This document shows, piece after piece, positions 2,990-57,973 of a stretch of 64,000 bases of DNA. How positions within the stretch are numbered: position 1 is the stretch's first letter; the number at the start of each line of letters is the position of its first letter. This stretch comes from a candidate division WOR-3 bacterium (GTDB lineage Bacteria; Hydrothermota; Hydrothermia; JBDRYB01). Below the pieces are notes generated by a model, which was not told where the DNA came from, did no database searches, and saw nothing but the letters and a program-made list of their open reading frames with translations. Where the stretch lies: assembly GCA_039803205.1 (NCBI GenBank), contig JBDRYB010000006.1, positions 1 through 64,000 of the forward strand. Direction: 5' to 3'. The translations under genes were made by a program, and so were the position numbers.

Positions 2990-4624
2990 ATGACCAAATT
3001 TCTCATGATATTGACCGCGTCAACAGTGGATATAAGCGGAGAGTTCAGCCTGAGCCTTAGCTACGCTTACCCATCCGTGAACCTTTACCTCTTCAATCCT
3101 GGATTTGAAAACCCGGCTCTGGCAAATGGGCTTGTTGGCTTCGCTAACAACCCAGCGGCCCTCGCCCACCTCAGGCCAGGGAAATACGGTGAAGCCATGG
3201 GCGTCCTCGCTGTATCCGCATACTCCGGGATAAAGGATACCGCTTTTCTCCCCGTGGATTCGGCCAACTGGGACTCCCTCGGGATAACCTTCTCAGGCGA
3301 TACCCTTAGATTCCCCTACTCCTTCTCAGGGGGCGAAAAATGGGGCTTGGATTACCTCGCATACGGCACGAGGATCGGCAAGAAAAAGGATTGGGCTATT
3401 GGCTTCGCTTTCACGAGAGGGGATTTCATGGGCTTTGATGCCGCGGGGGCCCTTTGGGGTTCAGCCCTGGACTCGCTCACCTTCAAGGACACCATAACCA
3501 GCGCTGACATCCCTGGTTTGCCATCCGGAACCGCGATACCCGTCTCCTTTGGGCTCGCCATGGGGGGCGGAGCGAACCTTGATGTCTCCGGAAATGGGGG
3601 TTTCACGACCCTGCCGTTCACTGGAGCCATCGCCAGGCAATCCGGAGGCTGGACATACGGCGCCGGCATCAGGATAACCCCTGTCTGGGGGAACGCGGCT
3701 CTCAGAGCCCTTGGCGCGGGTGAAATAGCCGGAACCGCTTTGCTCACCGCTGAGCCATATCTTGGGGATACCTGGAGGATAGAGGCTGAGTTCACGGGCG
3801 AGCTTGAGAACGACACACTGGTAAAATACTACATTGATGGGAATGTGAGCACCCTCAACCCATCCCTATTAATGGGCATAGCATGGCAAGGCAGCTGGCT
3901 CGGCTTCGGCCTTGCCATAGAAAGGGGGAGCCCAACCTCCATGACGGGGAATTGGTCTCAGAGCGCCATGTATCCCTGGGGAGGCGTAGATTGGGACATA
4001 GACGATGACAGCCTTATAATTGACACCGCGAACCACATCATATCGGGAAAGGGAAGGCTCATAATCCACGGGCTTGAGGAGGATACCGCTCAGGGAGGCG
4101 GCCCAATAGAATCGTTCATTGGAAGCGTCTCCGGTCTGAGGGGAGGGGTGAGCATAGGGGTGCCTTTGTCTGGCTTCGTCAACTGCTTGGGGTGTTTAAT
4201 ACCATGGCTATCGGCGAGGCCGGTTGTGGAGATAGTTGAGCCAGGGGTTGAGAGATTCGTTCCGAGGCTCATCCTCGGGACCAGCCTCGGGGTGATCCTC
4301 TCGGATGACATGAGATACATGAAGATAAGCTGGACAGGGAGCATCTCAACAAACACTGCTATCCAGGTTAGCCTGAGTAGCATATTCTACTGGCAGAGCT
4401 ACTCTCTGGGTTGGCTACCAATAACATCAATCCCCGTTCTCGCTGGGGGCATCGGGGTAAGCTTCCCTGTCGGCTATGGCAGGGCTTATCTTTCCGCGAG
4501 GGCAAACACTTCGAGCCTTATAAGCGCGGTAGCAATGGGCTACATAGGCGCGGAAACGGGTTCGGTTTCCCAGGTTTATGCCTCATTTGGGGCAGGGCTC
4601 TCGTATCCTATAGGTGAGAGATGA
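2990..4624 (+). CDS. hypothetical exported protein, probably outer-membrane beta-barrel (FadL/PorV-like NPA motif)
   Basis: N-terminal hydrophobic stretch, NNPAALA motif, Gly/aromatic-rich beta-strands, C-terminal FGAGLSY. Confidence 0.5.
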   Translation: MTKFLMILTASTVDISGEFSLSLSYAYPSVNLYLFNPGFENPALANGLVGFANNPAALAHLRPGKYGEAMGVLAVSAYSGIKDTAFLPVDSANWDSLGITFSGDTLRFPYSFSGGEKWGLDYLAYGTRIGKKKDWAIGFAFTRGDFMGFDAAGALWGSALDSLTFKDTITSADIPGLPSGTAIPVSFGLAMGGGANLDVSGNGGFTTLPFTGAIARQSGGWTYGAGIRITPVWGNAALRALGAGEIAGTALLTAEPYLGDTWRIEAEFTGELENDTLVKYYIDGNVSTLNPSLLMGIAWQGSWLGFGLAIERGSPTSMTGNWSQSAMYPWGGVDWDIDDDSLIIDTANHIISGKGRLIIHGLEEDTAQGGGPIESFIGSVSGLRGGVSIGVPLSGFVNCLGCLIPWLSARPVVEIVEPGVERFVPRLILGTSLGVILSDDMRYMKISWTGSISTNTAIQVSLSSIFYWQSYSLGWLPITSIPVLAGGIGVSFPVGYGRAYLSARANTSSLISAVAMGYIGAETGSVSQVYASFGAGLSYPIGER

Positions 4625-4675
4625 GAAGGGGCTCTCAGCTGAGGGTAAAATAAGAACGGTAGAGGAGAAACTGAG

Positions 4676-7134: not shown

Positions 7135-7972
7135 GATAAGGCCCTCCCCACTCATCGCGGCCCTCGTTTCCGTGGTTGGCGCAAAAGGCTATGAAGGCCT
7201 CGTCAGGTGAAACAGAAGGCCCCTTCGCGTCGGAAAGCCCCGCGACCTTGTTGTAATAATAGGCCAGCTGGCCGGTCTTTCTGTTAAGCCTTCCGAGATA
7301 GCCAGGATAAACCTCCGAACAGAAAACTAAAATGCTATCGGCGCCCGGCCAGAAAACGAAATCGTGTCCGAGCGTGTCCCAGTTCTCAAGCAATGTGCCT
7401 CCGGAGTCCAAAAGTTCACCATTATCAAGGATTACGAGGGGCCAGGAAACATCAAAGCTCCTTGATGAATAGTAATAATCATCCTCATCCTCCCAATAGT
7501 AATCAAACAAGTATGTTATCTGTCCGGTTTTCACATTCCAGAGGTAAAATCTGCCGCTGGAGTAGGGCACAACGAGCACCCTATCAGAATCCACAACACC
7601 AACGACCTCCGGACGAAATTCAGGGAGCGCGGAACCAATAAGCGCATCCGTTCTCAGATCATACATGAGAAGGGTATATCTATCGTTATCGTAATCGTAG
7701 ACCCCCGCGGCCATGAAGTTCCCCTTGATGTGAAAGCACCTCACATCCTCAAGAAAGACCTCCTCGCTGGTATCAGTGTATCTCACGAGGTTAATGTAGT
7801 AATACCCACCAAGGGCGTATATCCTTCCCGATGAATCAACCCCCGTGAGCCAGAAATCTCCCTCGTCAACCAAAACCGATGGGGTTGGGTCCGGAGGAAC
7901 CTGGGTCTCGCAAGCCAGGGCGAACAAAGCGATCATCAAAAGCCTCTTACCAGGCAAAGCCGATCCCTCCAT
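7097..7972 (-). CDS. hypothetical lipoprotein, beta-propeller/TolB-like
   Basis: Lipobox-like ALAC; PSVSPDEAFIAF repeat-like motif. Confidence 0.55.
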   Translation of the reverse strand: MEGSALPGKRLLMIALFALACETQVPPDPTPSVLVDEGDFWLTGVDSSGRIYALGGYYYINLVRYTDTSEEVFLEDVRCFHIKGNFMAAGVYDYDNDRYTLLMYDLRTDALIGSALPEFRPEVVGVVDSDRVLVVPYSSGRFYLWNVKTGQITYLFDYYWEDEDDYYYSSRSFDVSWPLVILDNGELLDSGGTLLENWDTLGHDFVFWPGADSILVFCSEVYPGYLGRLNRKTGQLAYYYNKVAGLSDAKGPSVSPDEAFIAFCANHGNEGRDEWGGPYPTDYYLWKYPLR

Positions 7973-9080
7973 GTATGTTCATGTTTGGAAAGAATCTTCC
8001 GCCAAGCCCTATCCCGTGGCCGAACTCAAAACCAGCCAGGAGCCTGCCGTATGTTATGTCCCCAAAAAGCGAGCCATAGAAGCCGAGGCCGGAACTCCTG
8101 GTTGTGGATGAGGCTATAGGGTCATAGAAAGAGACATGCTGGTTCCCCAACCCAAGGGCCAGGCCTATTTCAGAATATGTCCTTGAGGAGCTGGCACCGT
8201 GTGCCAAAATGAGGTTGCCATAAACCGCGTGCGCGTTCCATTTGCCCGTGTATCTGTCAAAAGGCCTGTCTTTCCTTATTCCCTCTGACCAGAGATAGAG
8301 TATGCCCAAACCGAGCCTCAGCCCGTTCAGGTAGCCTGTGGTGTATCTACCTGAAACGGAGATGAGGGGCCGGACACGGCCAGAATCCGAATATGCCTCA
8401 CCTGAGGGAAGTCCCCAACCAAAAGAGAGGGCTCCGCGTGGAGCCATTGGCCCCCGGGTCCGCACAAACCGAGCCTGAGGCTTATAATACCCAGAGGCTA
8501 TTGTTGTCTCTGCCCTGGGGGACTCAGGCCACGAAGGGGCGTCCTTGGCCCTTCTAAGGTAGTCAAGCGCGGCTCCGGCATCCGCTTCCCGCCCAGCCAT
8601 GTATCCGGCTACGCCACCAGCGAGGGTTCCCGTGGCCCAAGCGCCCGTGGCAACGGCTGAATTATCCGTGAGGCTGGCACTAACAAAACCCGCCAGAGTT
8701 CCAAGCAGGCACGCGCCCAGAGGGATGGAACAACCAGTGTAAAGACACGAACGGGAGGATGTAACCTCGCTCTCCCATATCGGAGCGCCGAAATCAGAAA
8801 GGTCTGCCAACCCATTGAGGTAATTCCCTGACTCAATGTATTGGTTGAGGGCCGCGATATCCTCAGCATCCATTCGGACAACCCTTTCCTCAAAGCCCTC
8901 TTTTGTTCTGCCGCTCCTTATCAAGATAGCGACCCTGGCCCCTCCGCCCTCCTCGGAAAAGGAGGCCTCAATGAAGCCAGGGACCATCGTGAAGAGCCGG
9001 TATTCGCGAGCTTCCGCTTCACCAACCCCTTTAGCGAGAACAGGATGAAGAACAAACCCTAACAAAACACCCACGAGCAT
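7947..9080 (-). CDS. hypothetical exported protein with a central hydrophobic Gly-rich segment and C-terminal beta-barrel-like region
   Basis: 377-aa ORF; ends NIHGGIGFAW (aromatic OMP terminus); upstream TTGACA-N18-GATAAT. Confidence 0.55.
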   Translation of the reverse strand: MLVGVLLGFVLHPVLAKGVGEAEAREYRLFTMVPGFIEASFSEEGGGARVAILIRSGRTKEGFEERVVRMDAEDIAALNQYIESGNYLNGLADLSDFGAPIWESEVTSSRSCLYTGCSIPLGACLLGTLAGFVSASLTDNSAVATGAWATGTLAGGVAGYMAGREADAGAALDYLRRAKDAPSWPESPRAETTIASGYYKPQARFVRTRGPMAPRGALSFGWGLPSGEAYSDSGRVRPLISVSGRYTTGYLNGLRLGLGILYLWSEGIRKDRPFDRYTGKWNAHAVYGNLILAHGASSSRTYSEIGLALGLGNQHVSFYDPIASSTTRSSGLGFYGSLFGDITYGRLLAGFEFGHGIGLGGRFFPNMNIHGGIGFAW

Positions 9081-10155: not shown

Positions 10156-10167
10156 AGGAGGATACCT

Positions 10168-12907: not shown

Positions 12908-13809
12908 CTCAAACCGCGCATGAAATCCGCCGAGAGCATTGGCCTACCCCCCTCTGGTTGCAAGGTTTCTATGCAGACAACGCCTCCGGAGCAAGCTACC
13001 ATGAGATACCTCTCCCCGAGGATTACCTCTCCGGGCTGGCCGGCTAGGCCCCTGGCAGGAAAAGCCCTGAGGAGCTTGATCAGCCTGCCTCGGAAGGTCA
13101 TCCTCGCTCCAGGCTTCGGAGAGAGGGCGTTTATGTGCCTGGCCACCTCTTCAGGGCTCATGTTCCAAAGAGGCCAGAGCTCGGATTTCTCTATTTTGGG
13201 CGCGTATGAGGGCTCGCCTTCCTGGGGGACCGGTTTGAGTGAGCCACTAGCAAGCCCCTCAAAGGCGGATCTTACGAGCTCCGGCGCTATGGCGAGGTAT
13301 GCCGTGACGATGTCCTCTTTCGTGGGATAATCTGGCAGGGCCACCTCCTTCGTTTTGCTGATCTCCTCCTGTAGGACAATAGGCCCAGTGTCAGTCCCCT
13401 CGTCCATCACGAAAACCGTGAGCCCGTATGGCCCTCCGGCCATGATTGACCTCTCTATGGGTGCCGCTCCCCGCCATCTCGGTAGAAGCGAAGGGTGAAG
13501 GTTCAAGGGTGCTATTCTTGGCAGTTCAAGGAGTGGCTTTTTGAGGATCCTCCCAAAGTCTGAGACGAGTATAAAATCCGTTCTCGGCAGACCGGAAACG
13601 AAATCCGGAGAGTTGACCCTCTCGGGTTGAACAAGGGTAAGCCCTAGCCTCCTGGAGGCCTGAGGCACGGGGCCAGGGGTGATCATGAGGCCACGGCCGC
13701 GAGGCTTGTCCGGGGTGGAAACAACGAGATCTGGCATGATGTTGCTCTCGGCCAGAACCCCAAGTAACCTCGCCGCAAAATCTCCGGAGCCAAAGAAGAT
13801 ATAGCTCAT
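12904..13809 (-). CDS. fmt: methionyl-tRNA formyltransferase
   Basis: PDKPRGRG, NLHPSLLPRWRGAAPIERSI, MDEGTDTG, YAPKIEK. Confidence 0.95.
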   Translation of the reverse strand: MSYIFFGSGDFAARLLGVLAESNIMPDLVVSTPDKPRGRGLMITPGPVPQASRRLGLTLVQPERVNSPDFVSGLPRTDFILVSDFGRILKKPLLELPRIAPLNLHPSLLPRWRGAAPIERSIMAGGPYGLTVFVMDEGTDTGPIVLQEEISKTKEVALPDYPTKEDIVTAYLAIAPELVRSAFEGLASGSLKPVPQEGEPSYAPKIEKSELWPLWNMSPEEVARHINALSPKPGARMTFRGRLIKLLRAFPARGLAGQPGEVILGERYLMVACSGGVVCIETLQPEGGRPMLSADFMRGLR

Positions 13810-15428
13810 TTCGCTGAGAAGACCCTTCTCGCGCTTATCAACCCCTTCGTTCCTTTTAGGATCGCCACATAAACCCCTGGCTTGAGGGCGGAGAGATCAA
13901 AGCCGCAAGGACTATCCCATGTTCCCGAAAACAGGACATCCGAGAGCCTTCCAGCCGCGTCGTAAATCTCAAGGGAGGCGGAGACCCCTTTGCCAGGGTA
14001 TGCCCAGAGATAACCGTCCCTCTGCATGAGGCCGGGGGCGATTGGCCTCTCAGCCTCATCCTGTCCAACCATGCCAACATAAAGAACCGTTGTTCCGGGC
14101 GGGATGCTGTCAACCGCTACCTCACATAGGCCAGAGGGTGCTTGTTTAACGATGTATCCCGGCCCCGATACCTCATATTCGTATCCGGAGCGCATCCGCG
14201 GCCAGACCCTCCCGTCATAGAAGCACCTGTTATTGGCGTTGGTTATTACGATGGCGCAGGTCGTGCTGTCGTTGTTGTAATAATAGGAATCATCAAGGTT
14301 GTATAGCCTGAGGGAGCGATCCGCGGAGCCATTCTCCGTGAACTCAAGAAGCCCACCCCTGTGCCCTGAGATGAACCTATAGCCAGCTGAGCCAGGATCC
14401 GCCTTGCATGTGGTCGTTGTCTGTATGAACATAGGAACATCAGGAAGGGGATCGGGCAGATCACCCTGAACCCATGTCCCATCGGAGAGAAAAAGCCTGT
14501 CCTCGTGGGTGTGGCCCGCTATTGCCATATCAAGGCCGTATGTCTCAGAGTAGGTTATGAACTCGGTTGTTCCGTGGGTGTTTGAATCATCGTTATCGTC
14601 CTTGTCTATTACAGGGCCGTGCATCATGGCCATGAGCAACGGATAATCCCGATGCTGGGAGAGGTCCTGGGATATGAACGAGAGCTGGTCCGGCCTGAAC
14701 CCGTAGCAGTATGAATCTAGGTCAACATATATGTTGTCAGGGCCGGTGTCAAGGCAAAGCATGTGAAGGATGCTCCCGTAATCAAAGGCGTAATCCGGAT
14801 AAGGGTTCACTATCCGCAGGTAATTCGTCTCCTCGTTTCCAACATACATCCAGTTATACCAGTCGTGGTTTCCGGAGACAACGAAGCACGGAACCCTCAA
14901 ACTCTCCGATATTTCCAGGAATTCCCTATACCAATTGGGAGAATCCCCAACCTGGCCCTTCTCCACGATATCCCCTGTTATTATCACGAAATCAGGGTTT
15001 ATAAGATTCGCTTCCCTCGTTGCCCTGGTGTAGTTTTGGCTCTCTCGGGCAGAGTAGCCTATATGGATGTCCGTGAAGTGGAGGAAACGAACCGTATCAC
15101 GCCAGGATCCGTATATCATCACGGCGTTCGGCTGGGTATCTGAGCCAAGGGGCGTGCTCAGCGCCAAGGCGTATAGGCCAGGCTCAGCTCCATAGGGGAT
15201 AAAAGCGCATAGGCTGTAAAGGGTGTCGTGGGCCTCTGGTTCATCGTGCGAAAGGGAGATGCTCCCGAACTCAGAGATTAGGGTTATGTAAAGGGGGGAA
15301 AGCGGACCAGAGGCCTTAAACACAACGCTTATGGTATCCCCTGGAACAGCCAGGGCTGGCCTCGCTAGCCGCGGATACGAGAGCCACGGCTGAGCTAGGA
15401 GCAATGCGGCTAAGATATGTCCTGTCAT
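13806..15428 (-). CDS. secreted calcineurin-like metallophosphoesterase with T9SS-type C-terminal domain
   Basis: HFTDIH, TGD, GNHD, AGHTH motifs; C-terminal IYDAAGR...PGVY. Confidence 0.85.
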   Translation of the reverse strand: MTGHILAALLLAQPWLSYPRLARPALAVPGDTISVVFKASGPLSPLYITLISEFGSISLSHDEPEAHDTLYSLCAFIPYGAEPGLYALALSTPLGSDTQPNAVMIYGSWRDTVRFLHFTDIHIGYSARESQNYTRATREANLINPDFVIITGDIVEKGQVGDSPNWYREFLEISESLRVPCFVVSGNHDWYNWMYVGNEETNYLRIVNPYPDYAFDYGSILHMLCLDTGPDNIYVDLDSYCYGFRPDQLSFISQDLSQHRDYPLLMAMMHGPVIDKDDNDDSNTHGTTEFITYSETYGLDMAIAGHTHEDRLFLSDGTWVQGDLPDPLPDVPMFIQTTTTCKADPGSAGYRFISGHRGGLLEFTENGSADRSLRLYNLDDSYYYNNDSTTCAIVITNANNRCFYDGRVWPRMRSGYEYEVSGPGYIVKQAPSGLCEVAVDSIPPGTTVLYVGMVGQDEAERPIAPGLMQRDGYLWAYPGKGVSASLEIYDAAGRLSDVLFSGTWDSPCGFDLSALKPGVYVAILKGTKGLISARRVFSAK

Positions 15429-16387
15429 TTGAACCTCACAGCGTTAAGGAACTCCACCGCTAGACTTGTATATTCCTCGTCCATCTCGTGGGAAGAGAAG
15501 ACAGCGGAAACCCAGCATATCCCACCCTCGGATCTTACATCCGCGACCCCATATTTCTTCATCACGCCCTTCATTTTAGTTTTGTGCTTGAACCAGAACC
15601 GAAACCTTGGTTTTCCGGATAGTTCGGCTGTCCCCTCAAGGCCGAACTCCTCTGCATCCTGGGTGCGTTTCAAGGCTTTCTCGAGGGCCTCGGCAGACCC
15701 CTCATTCCCCTCCCACGAAGCAACGATTGCATCAACCCTCTTAGTTCCCTTGTAAGGGATCATGACGGCCAGGGAAAACCCCCATTCCTCTGGCAACGCG
15801 TAAAGGGTCGCCGGAACAAGGCCGCCCGGCTCTGTGAAGCACATCAACCATCTGGGCGCGGACGAGAGATCCACCTCCACCCGCTCGTTGGAAAACCTCA
15901 CCTCCCCTAGGGAAATCTTCGGATTCTCCACCTTTTCCAGGGAGAGGCCCTGAACGAATTCCCGATAGACCGATGAGGCATCGGAGAATCTGGCCCCCGG
16001 TTCAAGCCTGAAAAGGGCCTTGAAGTAAAGCGCGCCTGCTTTTACGGCCAAAAGCGCGTTTTCACACCGAACTCCCCCAGCCTCGGCGGCCATGACCACG
16101 CTCCTTGCTTTAAAATCACCGAGAAAGAAGGTGGTATCCTCCGAAACACTAGCATCCGGAAACTCTCCCTTTACGCTGGCCGTGAAGGCCTGCACCATCA
16201 TTTCCAGGGTCATTGATCTCTCTATGCCCCAGTAGAAGGAAACCCTCTGGAAAGGCCTCTTAGTGACCACAGCCCCTATCTGGCTGGAAGAGATCATTAC
16301 ACCTGTCTGAACCCACCCGGGCGGCAGGGAGAGCCTTACCCCAGCGAGGGAATCCTCAAACACTATGGAAAGAAGGATCGCCATCAT
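15425..16387 (-). CDS. hypothetical exported protein
   Basis: 320-aa ORF with ATGA-type overlaps to both neighbours; short hydrophobic N-terminus; LSLPPGW motif. Confidence 0.6.
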   Translation of the reverse strand: MMAILLSIVFEDSLAGVRLSLPPGWVQTGVMISSSQIGAVVTKRPFQRVSFYWGIERSMTLEMMVQAFTASVKGEFPDASVSEDTTFFLGDFKARSVVMAAEAGGVRCENALLAVKAGALYFKALFRLEPGARFSDASSVYREFVQGLSLEKVENPKISLGEVRFSNERVEVDLSSAPRWLMCFTEPGGLVPATLYALPEEWGFSLAVMIPYKGTKRVDAIVASWEGNEGSAEALEKALKRTQDAEEFGLEGTAELSGKPRFRFWFKHKTKMKGVMKKYGVADVRSEGGICWVSAVFSSHEMDEEYTSLAVEFLNAVRFK

Positions 16388-18131: not shown

Positions 18132-18759
18132 CCTTCAACCTCTGAACGAATTTCTTGAGGCGCTTGTTTATCTCGCTCTCTCTCCTCCCCCTTATTATCA
18201 GCTCGCCAGGACCCTGATCCGTGTGCTTCACATCGATCTCGTCGTGGCCCAGATGCACTATTAGCCTCTCAGATACCCACTCCCCATCGTGTTCAAAAAC
18301 CGAAAGGAGCCACGGCGCGAGCGTCAGCTCGTCAAAGCAGAGGGTTTCTTTCTCGTGGTTGACGACTGAAACATCAACTAGTAGGCCGGGCTGATAAATC
18401 TCGCCGGAACGCACATAGACCGCAAATGCACCGCCAGTCGTTGGGCCGAGATATGTCCTCTTGAGCCTGGGATTGTGATCCCCTATCTTGAGATCACCGA
18501 GAAAAACCTCAACGCCGACCGGGAAAACTGCTGTGAGCGCGACCGATGAGCCAGGCGCGATGATGACCGGGGGCTCAACATCCAGGTAATACCTCTCTTT
18601 TGGCAAAATGGGAGCAATAAGGACATCGCGGCCCACAGGGTCAAAAGGAAGAAGGCAATTCACCGAGCCAATTGCCCTCCAGCCATCCCCATCCCTCAGG
18701 AATTCAATGTCAAGGTCTCCCCACCTGATCCTCTCGCCAGCTCTCCCGGTTTTTATCAT
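18121..18759 (-). CDS. DUF432-like protein
   Basis: P-P...PVIIAPG...PV-VEV...K-TYLGP-T-G pattern and position directly upstream of mscS. Confidence 0.55.
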   Translation of the reverse strand: MIKTGRAGERIRWGDLDIEFLRDGDGWRAIGSVNCLLPFDPVGRDVLIAPILPKERYYLDVEPPVIIAPGSSVALTAVFPVGVEVFLGDLKIGDHNPRLKRTYLGPTTGGAFAVYVRSGEIYQPGLLVDVSVVNHEKETLCFDELTLAPWLLSVFEHDGEWVSERLIVHLGHDEIDVKHTDQGPGELIIRGRRESEINKRLKKFVQRLKDVI

Positions 18760-19691
18760 TTGAAGTGCTTTAGAAGCATGTTTTCCATGATGAGAAGCCC
18801 ATACTGGCCATCAGCCACATATACAAGGGGTAAGGCCAGGCTTATGTCAGAGCTAAAGCCAGCGGTATTGTAATATGCCCTTTCTATGGGATTAGCAGGG
18901 TCAGAGACATCTATTATCCGGAGGCCTCCGCCGCCATCAGCCACATAAGCGTATTTCCCCGAAACCCTCACTGCTTTGGAAAACCCCGTGGTCTTGTATT
19001 GGCCCACAAGGGGTTCTGTTCTGCTGAAATCAAGAATGAGAAGCCCCTCTTTTCCGTCAGCTACAAAAACATATTTTCCGCCTATGGCGACGCCGGAAGC
19101 GAGGCCTTTTGTGTCGTATCTGCCCACTATCTTTGGCGCGCCAGGGTTGGAGACATCAAGAAGAAAGACCCCTGTCTCGCCATCAGCAACGGCCGCGTAG
19201 CTCCCGGAAACATCAACGGACTGAGCATACCCAGGAGTGTCAAAATAAGCCACATCCTGAGGGAACAAGGGATCCGCGAGAGACACGACGATGAGACCCT
19301 CCTCCCCGCCTGCGATGAACCCATATGAGCCCGAAAATGCCATATCCATGCAGTTCGCATCCGAAGGATATGTTCCTCTCTCCTCTCCTCTGAAGGCCAT
19401 TAGGCCCTGGCGGCCCTCAAGTATGGCATATATAACGCCGCCGTAGCACCTCACGGTTTTGACAGGAAAAGGGGTGGGGATGAGGGTGGCCTCTGCCGCG
19501 TCCCGTGATACAGCATAAACCCCTTCCTTTGTGGCCGCGTAAGCTTTCTTGCCATCGGTCGCTACTGATGGCGTAAACGAGAATGGCCATGCCTTTTCTA
19601 TTCTCACATAGAGGGAATCGGTTCCCCCGCCAAACCCACCGGCGCCCAGGCCCAATTGGGAAATAATTACCAAAATAAAATCAACAAACAT
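18756..19691 (-). CDS. LVIVD-repeat beta-propeller protein
   Basis: Repeated YAYVADG-GL-IIDVSDP-NP units. Confidence 0.85.
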   Translation of the reverse strand: MFVDFILVIISQLGLGAGGFGGGTDSLYVRIEKAWPFSFTPSVATDGKKAYAATKEGVYAVSRDAAEATLIPTPFPVKTVRCYGGVIYAILEGRQGLMAFRGEERGTYPSDANCMDMAFSGSYGFIAGGEEGLIVVSLADPLFPQDVAYFDTPGYAQSVDVSGSYAAVADGETGVFLLDVSNPGAPKIVGRYDTKGLASGVAIGGKYVFVADGKEGLLILDFSRTEPLVGQYKTTGFSKAVRVSGKYAYVADGGGGLRIIDVSDPANPIERAYYNTAGFSSDISLALPLVYVADGQYGLLIMENMLLKHFK

Positions 19692-32548: not shown

Positions 32549-32985
32549 GAATCATAGTCTCCAACCGCAGGGCCAGGAGGGACTACGAGATAATCGAGAC
32601 AGTGGAGTGCGGTATCGTGCTTTTGGGCTCAGAGGTTAAATCCATAAAGGCAGGCATGGTCTCCATAGCCGAGGCCTATGCTGAACCCATAGGGGGAGAG
32701 ATATGGCTCATGGACATGCATGTCGCGCAGTATCCCCACTCAGGGCCCTTCGTCCACGAACCCACGAGGCCGAGAAAATTGCTCCTCAGAAAGAACGAGA
32801 TAAAACACCTCATAGGCAAGGTCTCCCGGAGAGGATATACCCTCATCCCCCTGAGCATATACATAAAGAGGGGTTTCATAAAGCTTGAGCTCGGTCTGGC
32901 CAAGGGAAGAAAGAAGCACGAGAAAAGGGATGTCATAAAGAGAAGGGAGGCTGAGAGGGAAATACGGAAGGAGCTTAGGGGATAA
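32536..32985 (+). CDS. smpB: SsrA-binding protein
   Basis: NRRARRDY, GIVLLGSEVKS, RKLLL-K-EI, GLAKGRK--EKR. Confidence 0.97.
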   Translation: MPPVRIIVSNRRARRDYEIIETVECGIVLLGSEVKSIKAGMVSIAEAYAEPIGGEIWLMDMHVAQYPHSGPFVHEPTRPRKLLLRKNEIKHLIGKVSRRGYTLIPLSIYIKRGFIKLELGLAKGRKKHEKRDVIKRREAEREIRKELRG

Positions 32986-44892: not shown

Positions 44893-46389
44893 TTATCTGA
44901 CAGTGACCTTTGCCTTCTCATCCCCAGCAACCACGAAATAGACCCCGGGCACCAGGGGGCTTATTAGGGTCTTGCCCTTTATTTCCCTCCTTATAACAAG
45001 CCGGCCAGCCGAATCGTAAATCCTCGCCTCGCCTGAGGGGCCGGTTATATAGAAGCCGGAGGGAGCCATCGTGATCCTGAGACCCGGTTTCGCTCCAGTG
45101 TTCCCAGCAACCCCTCCCGCCTCAGTAAGGTGAACCACTGATGTGATGCTCGTATAGTAAGGTGGGTCTGACATTGGCTTCTTGAACCACTCCTGAACAT
45201 ATACCCCTCCCTGGCCATCGGGAACCAGGCCAGTAGCAGTTCCTCTGGAGTATTCCCTTACTGTATCTATCCAGGCCCAGATCAGATTACCTGAGGTATC
45301 AAGCTTGTAGACAGCGGGATATTCGTGTTCGTTGGTGCCCCCGATGAAGATGTTTCCTAAGGAATCAAGAGCTATTAACCTTGCTCCTTCGCGGCTGTCC
45401 CAACCGGGATTGACATCAAGTTTCCATTTTTCGTTCCCTATGGTATCTACACACATTATCTCCCAGCAATCGGGCCCACCGCCGCCGGTTAGGTAAAGGT
45501 TCCCCTTCTTATCTACTGCCATGTTACTAACACTCTGTTCCACCGGGCCTACATATTCTTTAATCCAATCAGTATTCCCGGTGGCCGTGTCCAGCCTCGT
45601 CAACCAGGCTGTTCCGGTTCCACTCCCGGACATATAAAGCCATTCACCAAAGAGAGCCATCGCCTCTGCACTGCGTTCTACCATAGTGCTTTCTGCCCTG
45701 ATCCAAAGGGGATTCCCACTCGTATCCAATTTTATAGCGAGAGGAAGCGGCATTGGACACGAACCAAATATGTCTGTTCTGAACCCCACCATGTAAGAAT
45801 TCCCTTCCCCATCAACCGAAAAGTCATGTGCCTGATCCATCCTGTGAAATGGCCCATCATATACAAAACACCACTTGAGGTTCCCGAAAGTATCAAGGGA
45901 GAACACGAGAACATCCATAACGGTAGCGGGCTCATCTACATCACCTACAACGAGGAGATCTCCTGTGGGACCTATTGCGATTACGCCTGAACCGTTGTCC
46001 GGAAGGCTATCAAGGATATAAGACCAGATAGGGAGCCCGCTGAAGGGATTAAGCTTGAGGACCCAGGATGAAAACACGGTGTCCGCACCGGGGAGGATCA
46101 CGCTTCCTACGGTGTATATGCCTGAGTGGGTCGGGAGTGCACTGCACATTACGCTCCAGTCGTAAGATACGGTGTCCTGATGAAACTGCCAGAGAGTATA
46201 TCCATCATGGGTTAAGGCCCATGCTACAGCGTGAGGATCCAGATAAGGCCTTGAGAGGCCCACCCCCAAAAGAAACCCCTGTGGGGTTTTCATGAAGCAG
46301 TCTGAGCCCAAGGTCTTCCCCGGCCTCATCCCATAAAGCCAGACACGCCAATCAACCTGAACCTGAAGGATAAGGGCGAGCAGAATCAT
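44893..46389 (-). CDS. secreted beta-propeller (SBBP-like) protein with short T9SS-type C-terminal domain
   Basis: Repeated KLDT-GN--W and VD--GN-Y--G; IYDSAGRLV...PGVYFV...VTVR. Confidence 0.78.
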   Translation of the reverse strand: MILLALILQVQVDWRVWLYGMRPGKTLGSDCFMKTPQGFLLGVGLSRPYLDPHAVAWALTHDGYTLWQFHQDTVSYDWSVMCSALPTHSGIYTVGSVILPGADTVFSSWVLKLNPFSGLPIWSYILDSLPDNGSGVIAIGPTGDLLVVGDVDEPATVMDVLVFSLDTFGNLKWCFVYDGPFHRMDQAHDFSVDGEGNSYMVGFRTDIFGSCPMPLPLAIKLDTSGNPLWIRAESTMVERSAEAMALFGEWLYMSGSGTGTAWLTRLDTATGNTDWIKEYVGPVEQSVSNMAVDKKGNLYLTGGGGPDCWEIMCVDTIGNEKWKLDVNPGWDSREGARLIALDSLGNIFIGGTNEHEYPAVYKLDTSGNLIWAWIDTVREYSRGTATGLVPDGQGGVYVQEWFKKPMSDPPYYTSITSVVHLTEAGGVAGNTGAKPGLRITMAPSGFYITGPSGEARIYDSAGRLVIRREIKGKTLISPLVPGVYFVVAGDEKAKVTVR

Positions 46390-49219: not shown

Positions 49220-49606
49220 CTATTCCCAGGGCAATTCCTTGAAATAGACAGCCCTCGCTGTGTCAGCTTCAAGGACCAAATAGACCCAGGCTCCAGCGTA
49301 TATGGGGTGGTGCTTGCGCAGAGGGCCGCCGAGAGCGGGAAAAAAGAACCAGAAAACACTGGTATCTCCCTCAAAGCCAATTCCCTTGAAATCAGGTTCG
49401 CCCAGCTTGAACCCTAGGCTATCCTCAAGAACAGAGCGAACAGGATTGATGAACCTTCTCAGCGCGGCCCTCGCGTCCTCGGAATAGTATGAGCTCTCGC
49501 CGAAGATCATTGGATTAGGATAAGCCCCCCTCAGAACCGGAGCCCGTGGCCCCCCGCCAGCGCAGGCCAGGAAAATGACCGGAAAAATAAGGACAAGCTT
49601 TCTCAC
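49220..49606 (-). CDS. hypothetical lipoprotein
   Basis: MRKLVLIFPVIFLAC lipoprotein signal from GTG 49606; TATCCT 6 nt upstream. Confidence 0.6.
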   Translation of the reverse strand: MRKLVLIFPVIFLACAGGGPRAPVLRGAYPNPMIFGESSYYSEDARAALRRFINPVRSVLEDSLGFKLGEPDFKGIGFEGDTSVFWFFFPALGGPLRKHHPIYAGAWVYLVLEADTARAVYFKELPWE

Positions 49607-49705: not shown

Positions 49706-49870
49706 ATGAGTATTTTTCACGAATTTGCCGAGAGGCTCATTTTGTTTGGGGTCGTTGCACACACGGCCCTGGTTCTGGGCTTTGTTGGAATCGTCCTCCT
49801 CACAGGAGGGCATGGAAACCCGAAACCAGGAAACATTGCTCACATGGAGGTGAAGGCATGCTCTCGTTGA
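49706..49870 (+). CDS. 54-aa single-pass membrane protein (absent from the ORF track)
   Basis: MSIFHEFAERLILFGVVAHTALVLGFVGIVLLTGGHGNPKPGNIAHMEVKACSR; GAGGT ribosome-binding site and TATAAT at 49680. Confidence 0.5.
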   Translation: MSIFHEFAERLILFGVVAHTALVLGFVGIVLLTGGHGNPKPGNIAHMEVKACSR

Positions 49871-51219
49871 TTCTGGCACTCGTATCCCAGGGAAGGTTCA
49901 TAGTCCACTTTTCTTCCGCGTCTGACATGCAGATGGCCTTGCCCGCGCTCGCAGAGAAGGCCCAGGTGATAAAGACGGTCTCCAGGGCCCTGAATTTTGC
50001 TGTGGTCATCACAGAGGATCCGGACGCCCTGAGAGGACTGCCCGGGGTCATCCTCGTTGAACCGGATGGCCAGGTCTACTCGCTCTACACCCCGAACGAC
50101 TCAATCTGGCCCCAGCAGTGGGGCCCCCCGAACATACATTGCCCTGAGGCCTGGGACCTCACCTTCGGCGATAGCGCTGTGAGGGTCGGTGTCCTTGACG
50201 AGGGCATTGATTATCTGCACCCTGACCTGGCTCCTCATTTCGGCTCGAACCCCGGCTATGACTTTGTTGACGAGGACCCTGACCCCGCGCCTGATTGGGG
50301 CCTATACCACGAGATCCACGGCCAGCATGTAGCTGGAATCCTCGCGGCAGTCACGGGAAATGGGATATACATGGCAGGGGTCGCGATGTGCCATCTCTAT
50401 GCCCTTCGTGTCCTTGATTCCATGGGGGTGGGCTGGAACTCCGATATAGCTGAGGCCATCCTCTGGGCCGCGGATTCCGGGCTTCATGTGATAAACATGA
50501 GCCTCGGGGGCACATCCTCATCAGCAGTTCTGAGGAACGCCTGCGACACAGCTTTCGCGAGGGGCGTTCTCCTTCTCGCGGCCTCAGGAAATAACGGAGC
50601 AAATTACATCCTTTATCCCGCGGCATACGAGAGCGTCATTGCTGTTGGTGCAACGGATTCCACGAACAACCTCTGGGGGAACAGCAACTACGGGGACGAG
50701 CAGGAGCTCGTCGCACCAGGTGTGGATATAATCTCCATAATGCCATACGGTAACCTCTTCTATGGCGAATACCTGACCGTCTCCGGAACATCAATGGCTT
50801 GTCCTCATGCGGCAGGGGTCGCGGCGCTGGTTAAGGCGCAGTTCCCTGGTATGACGAACTCTGACATCAGACAGAGGCTCAGAGAAACCTCGGTTGACCT
50901 GGGCGACCCGGGCTGGGACATGTATTATGGCTATGGCAAGGTTGATGCATACAGGGCACTCGTCGGGGTTGAGGAATTGGCCGGGAAACCAGGAGTCTCT
51001 ATGATATCCGGGCCCACGGTGGTTTCTGGCCCCGCGGAGTTCGGATATAGCGGGCCAGGCATCAGTCTCTTTGATCCATCCGGCCGAAGGATAGCCGGGC
51101 TTTCCAGAAAAGGAGACAGGTTCTTCCTTGATCCGGATGGAATGGCACAGGGCGTATATTTCCTAGTGGGAGAGGGGTCCAATGCCCCGGTGAAAAAGAT
51201 AATCCTGAAGGAGAGATAG
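49858..51219 (+). CDS. S8 subtilisin-family serine peptidase with T9SS-type C-terminal domain
   Basis: VGVLDEG, HGQHVAG, AASGN, SGTSMACPH; LFDPSGR...GVYF...KKII. Confidence 0.93.
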   Translation: MLSLILALVSQGRFIVHFSSASDMQMALPALAEKAQVIKTVSRALNFAVVITEDPDALRGLPGVILVEPDGQVYSLYTPNDSIWPQQWGPPNIHCPEAWDLTFGDSAVRVGVLDEGIDYLHPDLAPHFGSNPGYDFVDEDPDPAPDWGLYHEIHGQHVAGILAAVTGNGIYMAGVAMCHLYALRVLDSMGVGWNSDIAEAILWAADSGLHVINMSLGGTSSSAVLRNACDTAFARGVLLLAASGNNGANYILYPAAYESVIAVGATDSTNNLWGNSNYGDEQELVAPGVDIISIMPYGNLFYGEYLTVSGTSMACPHAAGVAALVKAQFPGMTNSDIRQRLRETSVDLGDPGWDMYYGYGKVDAYRALVGVEELAGKPGVSMISGPTVVSGPAEFGYSGPGISLFDPSGRRIAGLSRKGDRFFLDPDGMAQGVYFLVGEGSNAPVKKIILKER

Positions 51220-52821
51220 ATGACCGGAATCCTCTTGCTCATGTTATCAGCGGAACCGACCAGGTGCGCTACTCCCTTGGTATACGAGCGGCAGACCCAG
51301 GCCGCGCTGGTTCCGAAAACCTGGGGCAAAAGACCAAAAGCAGGGCCCAGCGAAGGGGACACGGTCCTCCTATGGGTCATGGACCTCTCGGTAATGCCGC
51401 CGGACTGGAAAAAGATACCATTCGTTTGCATGAGGGTCACCCAGGACGCATACATAATGGTTGATGCCGCGGCTCTAGATTCCGGGTATGTGACCACCAC
51501 GACCGTGGACTCCATAGAATCCGCTTTCCAGGACAAAAGCCTCGGGCCTTGGCCCGACACGGGAATATATGTCATAGACACCTCCGCTTTTGGCCCTCCG
51601 CCGGACGAGCTTGACGCTGACCCCAGGATATATCTCCTCTACTACATCATAGAGGGCTACATGGGATACCAATTTGATGGGTATTTCAACTTTGCGGACG
51701 AGTATCCGGACTCCGTGGCTTGGAATCATTGGGGGATGCACTCCAACGAGCGGGAGTGCATATACCTGGACTGCCACAATGAATCCCCCGCGACCCCGCG
51801 AATGCTCGGCGTCCTGGCTCACGAGTTCCAGCACCTCATACACTGGCTCGGGGATGCGGACGAAACACCCTGGGTCAACGAGGGTTGCTCTGAGCTCGCC
51901 ATGTTCCTATACGGAGCGCCTGACCCAATAGTTGAGTTCCCGGGCAATCCGGACAACAGCCTGGTCACATGGTCAACCGGCTTCTCCGACTATGTGAAGG
52001 TCTATCTCTGGACACTATACCTCTACGAGCAGTTTGATTCGGGCTTCGCGCTCACGAGGGCGCTCGTCGATGAGAACGCGAACTCTGTTTTCGGGGTGGA
52101 GAATGCCCTTTCTGGCCAGGGCGTGCCAGGAATGACCGAGGCCTTCTCCATGTGGGTCCTGGCTAATTACCTTGATGATACGGGAACCTACGGCTACTAT
52201 GGTGAGGACCTCCCACCCTTCGCTCACCAGGGGAGCTACAGCTCTTATCCAGTTGGGCCGGTCTCAAAAACAGTCCACCTTTGGGCCGCTGACTACATAA
52301 GGTTCACGAATGTTCCTGACGGCTTGCAGTTTACCTTTAACGGCCAAGATGGAAAGCATTTCTTTTTGCTTGCTATGCTCTTCGATTCGTCGGGACCGAC
52401 CATGATATATGACATCTCACCGTCAAACGCGAACCAGGACACAACCGTGTATTTCTCGGAGGTAGGTTATCAGTATTACAAAGCGGTTATCGCGATAGCA
52501 GGATATCCCGATCCCTTGTCCGGAGACTCGTCAAACCAGAGCTACACATTTTGGGCTAACGGGACAGGCACGGACGAAGGCTCACGCTCCGAAAAACTCC
52601 GCTTCTGGTCAGATGGAAAGGGGGTCTTCCTTGGCCTACCATATGAGGAAGCAGTATCCATCAGGGTCTACGATGCTGGAGGTCGGATGATCCAAGGGCT
52701 CCACGAAGGGACCCTTGCCGCCGGAAACCATGAATTCACCCTGGATCCGTGGCCAAGGGGCATCCGTTTTGTGGTTCTCAGATACGAGGGGAAGAACCTC
52801 AGCCTGAAAATAGTTCACTAA
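51220..52821 (+). CDS. secreted zinc metallopeptidase (M30-like) with T9SS-type C-terminal domain
   Basis: LAHEFQHLIH...WVNEGCSE; VYDAGGR...G-HEF...KIVH. Confidence 0.82.
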   Translation: MTGILLLMLSAEPTRCATPLVYERQTQAALVPKTWGKRPKAGPSEGDTVLLWVMDLSVMPPDWKKIPFVCMRVTQDAYIMVDAAALDSGYVTTTTVDSIESAFQDKSLGPWPDTGIYVIDTSAFGPPPDELDADPRIYLLYYIIEGYMGYQFDGYFNFADEYPDSVAWNHWGMHSNERECIYLDCHNESPATPRMLGVLAHEFQHLIHWLGDADETPWVNEGCSELAMFLYGAPDPIVEFPGNPDNSLVTWSTGFSDYVKVYLWTLYLYEQFDSGFALTRALVDENANSVFGVENALSGQGVPGMTEAFSMWVLANYLDDTGTYGYYGEDLPPFAHQGSYSSYPVGPVSKTVHLWAADYIRFTNVPDGLQFTFNGQDGKHFFLLAMLFDSSGPTMIYDISPSNANQDTTVYFSEVGYQYYKAVIAIAGYPDPLSGDSSNQSYTFWANGTGTDEGSRSEKLRFWSDGKGVFLGLPYEEAVSIRVYDAGGRMIQGLHEGTLAAGNHEFTLDPWPRGIRFVVLRYEGKNLSLKIVH

Positions 52822-52825
52822 CCCC

Positions 52826-52871: not shown

Positions 52872-53014
52872 CAGTTCGGCTTGGGAAATCTTGAGGTGCC
52901 CACGAATCAGCCCCGTCGCTGAGCCAAGGGGCTAATCCGAACACGATAGCTTGTTGCATCACCAGATTCCCCTGCCTTAAAATTTCCCGCGAACCCGCAG
53001 AGGAGGGAAAAGAA

Positions 53015-53653
53015 ATGAGGAACTTTCTGCTCCTGAGCATGGTGTTTCTGGCTCTGGTTGGCTGTAAAAAGAAGCCAGAAGGGCCGGACGAGTTCACGAA
53101 GGCGTATCTTGCGGCTGGGGACCTGGGCGCGGAGGATCCTGAGCTGGGCGCTGATAGCCTGTATTCCCTTTACAAGAACAACCCCAAGTATCCTGACGAG
53201 GAGAGGTTGAGGGAGTGCCTTTTCCTCTCAGCGAACTGGGTCTACGGGAAGATAAGCCAGGTGAGTGAAAAGGACACAGCTGAGCAGACAAGGCTCATGA
53301 GGAAGGCCGCGGCCAGATACCAGGAGTTCGTTGAGAAGTATCCCACAAGCCCCAAGGCTGGCCAGGCATACAAGGACCTCGCTTACTGCCTCTTCATACT
53401 CAAGGACTACAGGGGTTGCATTAATGTCTGCAACACCTGGATAAACGACCCCCTCGCGTCCGCTTCCCCTTATCTCCCATACGCTTACAAATACGCCGGC
53501 AGGGCTTATACCTACCTGAACAAGAAGGACAGCGCCATAATATACCTGAAGGAGGCATACAAGCTCTTTGATGCCCAGGCATTCCTAGGAGAGGCAAAGG
53601 CCATGGAGGAGGACCTGAATAAGCTCGGCGTTAAAAAGCCATACTATAAGTAA
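53015..53653 (+). CDS. TPR-containing lipoprotein
   Basis: Lipobox LVGC; Y--F-EKYP-S--A--A pattern; promoter TTGCAT-N18-TAAAAT. Confidence 0.75.
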   Translation: MRNFLLLSMVFLALVGCKKKPEGPDEFTKAYLAAGDLGAEDPELGADSLYSLYKNNPKYPDEERLRECLFLSANWVYGKISQVSEKDTAEQTRLMRKAAARYQEFVEKYPTSPKAGQAYKDLAYCLFILKDYRGCINVCNTWINDPLASASPYLPYAYKYAGRAYTYLNKKDSAIIYLKEAYKLFDAQAFLGEAKAMEEDLNKLGVKKPYYK

Positions 53654-53690
53654 AACGAAACCTATTTTCATTATCGCTCGCTTGAAATAG

Positions 53691-55840: not shown

Positions 55841-55873
55841 GCCGGGCGCGTAAATCAGCGTTATAATTTTCCC

Positions 55874-57973
55874 ATGATAGCGTTCCTCCTCTCGTTAACC
55901 TGGACAAGCTACACGAACCGCAACGGCGTTCTTGACATATGTCCAGCCTCAGACACCCTCTATCTCGCCACAACAGGGGGCCTCGTGGTCTATTGGCCAG
56001 GCCACGGTGTCATTGCCGAACACACGAACATCCAAGGGCTTCCTGGGGTCGTCTTGTCCGGCGTCGCCCTGGATGGAGAGGCTAGGCCGTGGGTTCTGTG
56101 TCTGGGGGAGGGAATAGCGTATTGGGATGGGACGGAGTTCCAGAGGTATCCCCTTTACTCGCTTCCGATAAGCAATCCGGATAACATACGCTACGCCAAC
56201 GGTATATGGGCCAGGGGAAGGTGGGTCTATGTCGCGACAAACGAGGGGCTTTTGGTCCTGGACACGAAGGGAACCTCGGACACCCTTGACGACGGAAGAA
56301 GGCTCCTCTCGTTCTTTGACAAGGATACCGTATACACCCTTTACTTCTACAAGGACAGCGTCATAGCTGGTGGAAAGGGGGGCGCGTGGACAACTGATAC
56401 AGCCTCAATCCTGAACGAATCCTCCTGGGATCAGATATACCCATATAGGCCGGTCTTCGCTGTCCTCGTGAGCGATACATCCGTATATCTTGGAACGGAC
56501 AAGGGGCTGAGAAGGCTCAACGATCTTCTCATAGGCGAGGCCATTAGGGTAATAAGGATAGCTGAGCACGAGGGGAGGATATATTTCAACACCTACAATA
56601 AGGGGGTCTGGAGATACATCCCGAACCCGGAAATGGACCAGTTTAGCGAGGATACCCTCTGCCCTATAACGGACACGACCAAAAGGATATTCATGTGTCC
56701 CAGGGGCCTCTACGCTGGCCCAGCTGGGATATGGGTGGGTTTTGGCTGGCCCTACATAGATGACCTGGCCCCTCAGCTCTTCACCGGGGGATTCGCCAAA
56801 TACGAGGAGGGAAAGTGGAAGTTCAGGGGCTTTGGGGATATCGGGTTTGGGGTGGTGGGCGCGATGGCGAGGACGCCGGACGGTGCCATATGGATAGGAA
56901 CCACGCAACCAGGACAATATCCTGTTTCCTGCATGCGTTTCAAGGATGGGGTCTGGGACACGCTTTGGGCCATAAGGCACATAACATCATTCAAGGTCAC
57001 GAGAGGGGGAAGGCTCTTCGCTGGCTCTTGGGGCCAGGGGGTTTACGAGGTGGACACGGCCGGAAATGTCATCCGGCAGTATGATGAGAGTGAGGGTCTC
57101 AGCCCTCCGTATGTCGTTTCTTTGGGGACCGACCTGGCCGGAAACATCATAGTGGGGGTGATGGGCAATGTCTGCGCTTTCAGGATAAGGGATACGCTCG
57201 TGGAAAACTTTCAGGGACTCTATCTGGACAATACGCCGAATGTGGTTGAGATGGCTCCGGACGGCTCGCTTTGGATAGGCACATCCTCAGGCATTTACAT
57301 CTTCTCGGAGTCAGGGGGATCGTGGCATCAGACAGGCACCATAACCGGCGGCCTCCCTTCCCAGAACATAACATTTCTGGAACGCCACAAGGACAGGATG
57401 TATGTGGGGACAGCCGGGGGCCTCGCGATCTGGAGGGAAGGCTCAATGAAAACCTGCCTGGCTGGCAAAAACATCAACTGCGTGGAGCACGAGGCTAACG
57501 GGAGGATGTGGGTCTGGACAGCCGAGGGCCTTTATAGAACCGACAGCCTTGGCGGCGTGCTGGAGTCATACACGCCCGGCTCAAGCCTCCTGGTTGGTGA
57601 TGGGGAGGGCCTCGGCGATTATCCCATAGCCGATGCCATGGTCTTGGCCCCTGAGGCGGACCAGCTCTGGGTTGGCACGGACAAAGGCGTGTCCGTTCTC
57701 TGTGGTATAGGGGCCAGCGAAGGCTGGGTTAAGGGGCTTTACCTGTATCCGAATCCGCTTCACCTGAATCACGGCAAATACAGGTTTTACATCCCGGACG
57801 CGCTTCTGGGCTCATCGGTCTGGGTCTATACCGTTGATAGCAAGCAGGTAACATCAGCCGTTCTGGGCCCTGAGAGGGCGGTTGACCTCCCGAAGAGCAT
57901 AGCCCCTGGGCTTTATCTCGTCCTGGTCAAGAATGGGGATGAGTCCGTTGTCCTGAAGCTGGTTGTGATGTAG
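55874..57973 (+). CDS. PorZ-like double beta-propeller protein with T9SS-type C-terminal domain
   Basis: W-SYTN, YLAT-GGL, repeated W-GT--G units; YPNP...YTVD...PGLYLV...KLVV. Confidence 0.7.
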   Translation: MIAFLLSLTWTSYTNRNGVLDICPASDTLYLATTGGLVVYWPGHGVIAEHTNIQGLPGVVLSGVALDGEARPWVLCLGEGIAYWDGTEFQRYPLYSLPISNPDNIRYANGIWARGRWVYVATNEGLLVLDTKGTSDTLDDGRRLLSFFDKDTVYTLYFYKDSVIAGGKGGAWTTDTASILNESSWDQIYPYRPVFAVLVSDTSVYLGTDKGLRRLNDLLIGEAIRVIRIAEHEGRIYFNTYNKGVWRYIPNPEMDQFSEDTLCPITDTTKRIFMCPRGLYAGPAGIWVGFGWPYIDDLAPQLFTGGFAKYEEGKWKFRGFGDIGFGVVGAMARTPDGAIWIGTTQPGQYPVSCMRFKDGVWDTLWAIRHITSFKVTRGGRLFAGSWGQGVYEVDTAGNVIRQYDESEGLSPPYVVSLGTDLAGNIIVGVMGNVCAFRIRDTLVENFQGLYLDNTPNVVEMAPDGSLWIGTSSGIYIFSESGGSWHQTGTITGGLPSQNITFLERHKDRMYVGTAGGLAIWREGSMKTCLAGKNINCVEHEANGRMWVWTAEGLYRTDSLGGVLESYTPGSSLLVGDGEGLGDYPIADAMVLAPEADQLWVGTDKGVSVLCGIGASEGWVKGLYLYPNPLHLNHGKYRFYIPDALLGSSVWVYTVDSKQVTSAVLGPERAVDLPKSIAPGLYLVLVKNGDESVVLKLVVM

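Follow-up and report, generated by a model that had tools for sequence, protein, structure and literature searches.

Ultrashort, uncharged leaders on exported proteins of a candidate division WOR-3 bacterium as probable minimal Sec/signal peptidase I signals

The stretch described here, 64,000 nucleotides (nt) long and called the window below (contig JBDRYB010000006.1, positions 1 to 64,000 of the forward strand, assembly GCA_039803205.1), comes from a candidate division WOR-3 bacterium (Hydrothermota; Hydrothermia; JBDRYB01) and carries twelve genes, named here by the first base of their start codons, whose products begin with a very short hydrophobic leader that holds neither Lys nor Arg (Table 1). 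All twelve N-terminal peptides listed in an earlier, sequence-only reading of the window are present in the DNA, on open reading frames (ORFs) of 277-699 amino acids (aa), and its count of five leaders in which Gln directly follows the hydrophobic run is correct, as are the basic n-regions that it described for three lipoproteins of the window. Of the twelve, seven end in a C-terminal tail of type IX secretion system (T9SS) type, with matches to TIGR04183 that lie mostly below its cut-off, and two more are an amidase and an LVIVD-repeat protein; the 16387 product offers PsbP/DcrB-like leads only. None of the twelve leaders contains a lipobox Cys or a twin-arginine motif, there being no Arg in any of them. 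The least certain is that of 9080, which has the weakest start (posterior 0.52, upstream stop 12 codons away) and a leader and cut site that may fall at 8 or 16 residues.

Table 1. Short-leader genes of the window, with an intermediate case and four control genes; leader lengths are predictions.
Feature	Length (aa)	Coordinates	Strand	Leader and start
Probable outer-membrane beta-barrel protein; predicted structure resembles outer-membrane beta-barrels	377	7947..9080	-	MLVGVLLGFVL, no Lys/Arg
Metallophosphoesterase with T9SS-type tail	540	13806..15428	-	predicted 12 residues, L-L-A end, then Gln; stop 5 codons upstream, no other start
Protein without family, export only predicted	320	15425..16387	-	MMAILLS(IVF); stop 4 codons upstream
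LVIVD-repeat protein	311	18756..19691	-	predicted 11 residues, I-I-S end, then Gln; one Asp inside leader
FG-GAP/PQQ-type beta-propeller with T9SS-type tail	553	25894..27555	+	predicted 11-12 residues
Repeat protein with T9SS-type tail	503	30148..31659	+	predicted 13 residues, L-L-S end, then Gln
Weakly PorQ-like protein (below cut-off)	277	31715..32548	+	predicted 8 residues, I-L-A end; start set by TATAAT 7 nt upstream
N-acetylmuramoyl-L-alanine amidase (Amidase_3)	451	32985..34340	+	predicted 8 residues
SBBP-type propeller with T9SS-type tail	498	44893..46389	-	MILLALIL, then Gln; stop 1 codon upstream
Subtilase (S8) with T9SS-type tail	453	49858..51219	+	predicted 10 residues, L-V-S end, then Gln
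HExxH-type protein with T9SS-type tail	533	51220..52821	+	predicted 10-11 residues; in-frame stop directly before ATG
PorZ-like Reg_prop propeller with T9SS tail	699	55874..57973	+	predicted 7 residues, L-L-S end; TATAAT 7 nt upstream
Intermediate type: protein without family	544	2990..4624	+	short leader MTKFLMILTA(S), one Lys
Control lipoprotein		53015..53653	+	basic n-region, Cys at 17
Control LVIVD lipoprotein		27677..28687	+	basic n-region, Cys at 20
Control lipoprotein-type ORF		49220..49606	-	basic n-region, Cys at 15; GTG start
Control porin-like protein		59724..60809	-	canonical basic leader

The same leaders are found throughout the genome (2.32 Mb assembly, 95.9% complete). A profile built from the tails of the window found 242 tailed ORFs, of which 220 were kept after removal of six with an open 5' end or without a call, four shorter than 150 aa and twelve without a clear start signal. 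Hydrophobic leaders without Lys or Arg begin 168 of these 220 proteins, 39 have a basic leader and 13 have none; a stricter rule applied to the same 220 divides the uncharged leaders into 118 short and 37 longer ones and the basic leaders into 7 short and 30 long ones, and leaves 28 proteins with none. The first polar residue stands at median position 12 in the uncharged leaders and 17 in the 39 basic ones. Among untailed proteins, 130 of 1305 combine a short leader with the absence of any later transmembrane segment, though a few of these are cytoplasmic false positives. With Pfam and NCBIfam, short leaders were recognized on BamA, where seven residues precede a Gln, and on LptD, Skp, LolA, SppA, SprA, TonB-dependent receptors and a protein with an OmpA domain. 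Such proteins cannot function in the cytoplasm, and their export is obligatory. The survey of tailed and outer-membrane protein N-termini that the sequence-only reading had proposed finds the trait genome-wide. Lipoproteins provide an internal control, with Lys or Arg kept in 71 of 72 and a median position of 17 for the Cys. Within one genome, paralogs may bear either a short or a canonical leader. Many of the 242 tailed ORFs in this 2.3-Mb genome, which also encodes SprA, belong to large beta-propeller paralog families, and the 30148 protein is one of 34 paralogs with a common motif at the mature start. The SppA (752 aa; L215:17-2272 (-)) is extended at its N-terminus by about 250 residues that match no Pfam family, and it begins with a short leader in place of a membrane anchor.

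Start codons were assigned with a model trained on the DNA alone, which scored the Shine-Dalgarno sequence, a TATAAT box a few bases upstream, the start codon and coding potential. In half of the twelve genes (15428, 16387, 25894, 46389, 51220, 55874) no alternative start of genetic code table 11 lies between the upstream in-frame stop and the Met; at 32985 the sole alternative is an ATA one codon upstream, and at 31715 there are TTG codons upstream, but the chosen Met follows a TATAAT box and begins four of six homologs. The stop before 51220 and the -10 boxes before 55874 and 31715, on which the sequence-only reading had based those starts, were confirmed (Table 1). Across the 168 tailed proteins with uncharged leaders, 119 have no in-frame ATG, GTG or TTG before the upstream stop and 68 have no table-11 start there at all, while in the 153 short-class genes a start within 14 codons upstream would add Lys or Arg in 10 cases if ATG, GTG and TTG are allowed and in 39 if any table-11 start is. 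The stops close upstream include all three codons (TAA 26, TGA 23, TAG 9), which speaks against stop-codon recoding or read-through. A strict short-leader rule is satisfied by 193 of 1217 N-termini, compared with a mean of 15.3 (maximum 20) in random internal windows. Wrong starts, recoding and chance are all but excluded as the source of the short leaders, and neither the start analysis nor the orthologs described below bore out the possibility, raised against itself by the sequence-only reading, that true starts lie further upstream and give canonical signals. A TATAAT-like box 6-9 nt before the start, in place of a Shine-Dalgarno sequence, was seen in 544 of 1678 confidently started genes, about a third (in the window 31715, 55874, 20799, 25760, 38188 and 42458); boxes this close to the start suggest that many mRNAs are leaderless, as is likely for that of 31715.

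The leaders share a simple anatomy. Positions 2-10 are hydrophobic, mostly Leu, Ile, Val, Phe or Met, followed by a peak of Ser, Ala or Gly at position 11 and of Gln at position 12, and the best 7-mer reaches a hydropathy of 2.96 against 2.85 in basic leaders, the short class having been chosen for its hydrophobic run. The last Ser, Ala or Gly before the first polar residue lies at positions 6-15 in 129 of 153 short leaders, with a mode of 11. One of these small residues directly precedes Gln in 43 of 61 leader-end cases, compared with 386 of 1284 internal controls (p 3e-10), so that -1 is small in 43 of the 61 Gln-anchored leaders; position -3 is mostly Leu or Ile and does not follow the AxA pattern.

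Orthologs preserve both the length and the end of the leader. In the 32985 amidase it is short in 44 of 46 aligned homologs, with Ser, Ala or Gly in one column in 40 of the 44 and Leu two columns earlier in 32 of the 44. The 33 closest homologs of BamA include 30 with at most 17 residues before the first POTRA strand (median 11), whereas only 4 of 84 distant full-length homologs are that short (median 29) and 75 of these 84 have an early Lys or Arg; the mature start thus stays fixed while the leader shrinks, as expected for a cleaved signal. Since orthologs keep both the length and an L-x-[Ser/Ala/Gly] end, the leaders are most likely minimal Sec/signal peptidase I signals, a reading that we consider probable, although we infer the cleavage from sequence. 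The suggestion of the sequence-only reading that this lineage uses a minimal export signal without an n-region is in this respect supported genome-wide and across orthologs.

From leaders, starts, conservation and gene content we infer the following route. A Met with some 6-12 hydrophobic residues, mostly ending in Leu/Ile/Val-x-Ser/Ala/Gly, would act as a stripped-down Sec signal peptide that SecA delivers to an ordinary SecYEG and that signal peptidase I then cuts off. The h-region alone would open SecY, engaging SecA and the lateral gate. A leader of 7-12 residues is too short for a membrane-spanning helix, and its uncharged N-terminus would therefore sink into the lateral gate or the bilayer, by which a cut site 7-14 residues in could reach LepB; this would explain why shortening and loss of charge go together. 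Lipoprotein signals would keep their Lys or Arg because their own processing route needs them, and the mature protein would pass on to the beta-barrel assembly machinery (BAM), Lol or T9SS. Such tolerance may be old in WOR-3 and may have spread furthest in lineages without the signal recognition particle (SRP), the loss of which would not be its cause.

Several observations weigh against this reading. Of the 153 short leaders, 23 reach their first polar residue without a preceding Ser, Ala or Gly, among them that of 46389, exceptional in having no small residue directly before its Gln, and the short leaders have no separate polar c-region. Shortness and loss of charge are not strictly coupled, with Lys or Arg in 13 of the 44 short amidase leaders and in 3 of 11 short BamA leaders of the class. 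A possible lipoprotein (7097-7936 (-)) has an uncharged 8-residue leader with the Cys at position 9 after A-L-A and is the only one of the 72 without Lys or Arg; starting at an ATG 12 codons upstream would give it Lys-Arg, but it is the downstream start that the ribosome-binding site suits, and a similar case occurs in another genome (G060). According to reviews (PMC5875014), export is slower once the charge of the n-region is removed, and small residues are expected at -3 and -1.

The export machinery itself is largely conventional. The genome encodes secA, secY, lepB, secG, secD, secF and the peptide deformylase gene def (secD and secF recognized by motif only), and LepB is an ordinary single-anchor enzyme with a normal Ser/Lys dyad and no extension. 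Aligned to full-length E. coli SecY, whose numbering is used here, SecY keeps Ile at 82, 86, 187, 191, 278 and 408, which we take to be the pore-ring positions; an I195T substitution is present, but I191 is intact, and a change of the pore ring was therefore rejected. The residue that aligns with I191 in Thermus thermophilus SecY, I188, belongs to the pore ring (PMC8612361). F67 is unchanged and S68V is common to WOR-3 genomes with canonical leaders. Specific to the class are Thr/Ser195, Asp/Glu197 and Arg405, present together in 12 of 12 class sequences, R405 occurring in none of 19 others; nine of those have Cys195, Asp/Glu197 and Thr405, and ten have Ile195 and Ser405. In all 12, A197D/E and S405R occur together, and the two residues are candidates for a salt bridge just periplasmic to the pore ring. 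Nine of 11 SecA sequences from the class are without the zinc finger at the C-terminus. The SecA of this genome, which has no such finger, also differs from that of E. coli by some 130 inserted aa around the preprotein-binding domain and has a Cys-rich insert near residues 635-680. The inspection of secA, secY and lepB that the sequence-only reading had called for thus brought out class-specific changes in SecA and SecY but no LepB extension, and with LepB normal and the pore ring intact, its proposal that altered SecA, SecY or signal peptidase is the cause gains weak support.

Other single causes were considered and rejected. Zinc-finger loss from SecA does not account for the trait, as two genomes (G038, G044) and the SRP-positive genomes with short BamA leaders keep the finger. 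LepB has Val at the positions that we take to correspond to E. coli I86 and I144, but Val144 is near-general in WOR-3 and Val86 occurs in several lineages, and neither is clearly linked to the short leaders. SecG is present in 46 of 47 class genomes, and the deformylase gene argues against retained formyl-Met. YidC is unmatched in this genome but present in both congeners and in 58 of 59 other class genomes; as yidC and the rpmH and yidD motifs are all missing here, they probably lie at one unassembled locus.

The SRP, by contrast, appears to be lost from the entire class. In this genome no match was found to the SRP54 family, none to Ffh by tblastn with the proteins of two relatives, and no small SRP RNA. 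A search of 242 genomes of the phylum with the SRP54 family gave a best E-value of 2.8e-7 in the 60 class genomes compared with about 1e-59 to 1e-78 in most other families, and the signal-binding M-domain of Ffh was found in 0 of 60 class genomes. FtsY, like Ffh, is missing across these 60 genomes, and a second SRP-less or SRP-weak clade (G222, G223, G225, G229, G231, G235) together with G101 suggests further losses in WOR-3. SRP loss is known from Leptospira, Dehalococcoides and SAR86 (PMC4758666), and here it raises the question of how membrane proteins are targeted.

These changes make up one alternative, namely that the leaders need a lineage-adapted translocon, in which SRP loss, the remodelled periplasmic SecY funnel (Thr/Ser195, Asp/Glu197 and Arg405, with a possible salt bridge near the plug) and a SecA without zinc finger would form a natural prl-like channel. 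It would add to the minimal-signal explanation without replacing it, might raise efficiency in the class, and strikes us as possible though doubtful. Besides the class-wide SRP loss and the SecY triplet, it draws on the prl mutations, which let defective signals through (PMC3164448), and on the frequency of uncharged short leaders, borne by 14 of 47 tailed proteins from other class genomes, 7 of 34 from other genomes without SRP, 2 of 16 from SRP-weak ones and 3 of 61 from SRP-positive ones, a trend in small samples enriched for the best TIGR04183 tail matches and from related, non-independent genomes. Unbiased tiles covered 100 kb in each of four class genomes but a single 20-kb piece in each of four SRP-positive genomes, and owing to this unevenness the lineage frequencies rest mostly on tail-enriched regions.

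BamA decides largely against a requirement for these changes. All 11 class genomes read have a short BamA leader, with one Lys in three of them (G082 was left out of this count). Of 12 SRP-positive WOR-3 genomes, however, 8 have a short BamA leader as well, without charge (G093, G102, G114, G120, G146, G170, G203, G209), in G114 with a stop directly before the Met, and outside the class all 7 genomes that are SRP-less or SRP-weak have a canonical one. For these SRP states the M-domain of Ffh was checked in G001, G120, G225 and G231. SRP loss is thus neither necessary nor sufficient for short BamA leaders. Two of the eight, G203 and G209, have canonical SecY (I195/A197/S405), and in G225, where SecY is also canonical, 5 of 11 tailed proteins have short leaders. 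Since short leaders also occur in WOR-3 genomes with SRP and canonical SecY, the class-specific SecY and SecA changes and SRP loss are not needed for them. Skp is short in this genome and in the SRP-positive G202, and canonical in most of 26 others read. On a tree of SecY and SecA short BamA leaders fall in three clades, with weak support at the base. Among BamA loci from many phyla, 74 were readable (80 less 6 cut off) and three (L347-L349) have short leaders by eye; these are probably WOR-3 as well, being among the five best-scoring loci, and two of them lie in genomes with strong SRP54 matches. The remaining 71 look canonical, some with uncertain starts. A tentative idea is that the class gave up SRP and remodelled both SecY's periplasmic funnel (Thr/Ser195, the Asp197-Arg405 pair) and the tail of SecA, and that a hydrophobic peptide of 7-11 residues, which cannot span the membrane, thereby suffices as a complete cleavable signal even for BamA and LptD; if true, this would be a minimal signal code of natural origin, overlooked by standard predictors and by proteomic filters.

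It is improbable that the leaders escape signal peptidase I, either staying as N-terminal membrane tethers or being removed by another protease such as SppA. They are indeed shorter than a membrane-spanning helix, without a polar c-region and, in the 23 cases noted, without a small residue at the expected place, and an SppA with an added N-terminal region is present; but small residues are enriched at -1 in a column that orthologs conserve, and neither beta-barrel proteins nor T9SS cargo can stay attached to the inner membrane. Export by a non-Sec route that reads a short hydrophobic tag (YidC alone, twin-arginine translocation or another) is a good deal less probable still, since the absence of SRP from the class and the failure of the leaders to follow canonical rules, which would favour it, are set against the missing twin-arginine motif, a complete set of Sec genes, short and canonical leaders on paralogs of one genome, and substrates as large as SprA (1879 aa) where those of YidC alone have short translocated regions (PMC9360617). 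That starts were mis-called or stops read through, with canonical true leaders, is least credible of all: the minority of genes with a charge-adding upstream start and the weak start of 9080 stand against the many genes with no upstream start, the three kinds of stop and independently called orthologs that begin at the same Met.

Two neighbouring features of the window deserve mention. A 60-aa gene directly upstream of the 2990 gene (2805-2987 (+)) is one that we take to be TatA/B-like, and two small adjacent ORFs at 60937-61735 (+) (126 and 142 aa), of roadblock/LC7 type by eye only, lie ahead of an SbcD/SbcC-like pair.

A textbook bacterial signal peptide has a basic n-region and about 20 residues. 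The minimal signals proposed here would thus be hundreds of natural leaders, some on essential envelope proteins, that have neither, and they offer a ready panel for asking what purpose the n-region serves, where the lower limit of signal length lies and by what means LepB gains access to a cut site without a membrane span. Annotation probably misses part of the secretomes in this phylum, and gene callers at times wrongly lengthen these proteins at the start (P0245, for example). A cultured WOR-3 strain, sy37, exists (PMC12285271) and is placed in Hydrothermia (PMC12542636), which makes these claims directly testable.

The leaders resemble classical Sec/signal peptidase I signals (PMC3509430, PMC5875014) in their N-terminal place, hydrophobic core, small -1 residue, substrate classes and machinery (SecA, SecYEG, SecDF, LepB), but they have some 7-14 residues where 20-30 are usual, no basic n-region, no separate polar c-region and Leu or Ile at -3. 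Tested against the classical description, they have an h-region of about 7-15 residues and export-obligate carriers, fall below the length of 15-35 and lack the basic n-region in 168 of 220 tailed proteins. A proteomic survey of 32 organisms demanded 15-35 residues and early basic residues (PMC3509430), and ultrashort signals could not have been seen through that filter. The Perlman-Halvorson rule as quoted in that survey allows Leu or Ile at -3, and such residues with Ala or Ser at -1 form a proteomically observed signal peptidase I motif in Leptospira and Borrelia; the spirochaete and Thermotoga motifs (L/I-x-A/S, 'LFA') accordingly share -3 Leu/Ile and -1 Ser/Ala with the leaders described here, although those signals passed the normal-length and basic-residue filter. 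Leptospira also shares the absence of SRP with the class (PMC4758666), and for it, Dehalococcoides and SAR86 the accessible text of that paper reports neither Ffh, FtsY nor SRP RNA and does not mention ultrashort signals. No published report of such leaders or of SRP loss in WOR-3 was found in the full-text literature, which covered few subscription papers and no supplements, and the terms 'signal', 'secret' and 'SRP' are absent from the main texts of two WOR-3 papers (PMC12542636, PMC12285271).

With Bacteroidota T9SS cargo (PMC5837995) the proteins share T9SS-type tails, SprA and Gln as the commonest residue after the leader. The Q-rule of that phylum, which the sequence-only reading had brought to mind, does not extend to them, since Gln, taken as the first polar residue, follows 59 of 168 leaders (35%) against an average Q-value of 71% and a threshold of 48% of signal peptidase I substrates per species; Bacteroidota leaders are moreover described as tripartite, and no glutaminyl cyclase was identified here (PF05096 unmatched, and three M28 proteins all without a lipoprotein-type start, in a 95.9% complete genome). 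As in E. coli prlA and yeast sec61 prl channels (PMC3164448), proteins whose signals look defective by E. coli rules would be exported, but this genome has neither the polar pore-ring substitution nor the plug defect of a prl-type permissive SecY: the pore-ring Ile residues are intact, and the class changes at 195, 197 and 405 sit a helical turn from them, and some short-leader lineages do without these changes. The trait is a real, conserved and apparently unreported variant of the Sec/signal peptidase I signal, and what is new is that SRP loss is not required for it, that an intact pore ring goes together with three class-specific SecY changes, and that outgroup BamA provides the control.

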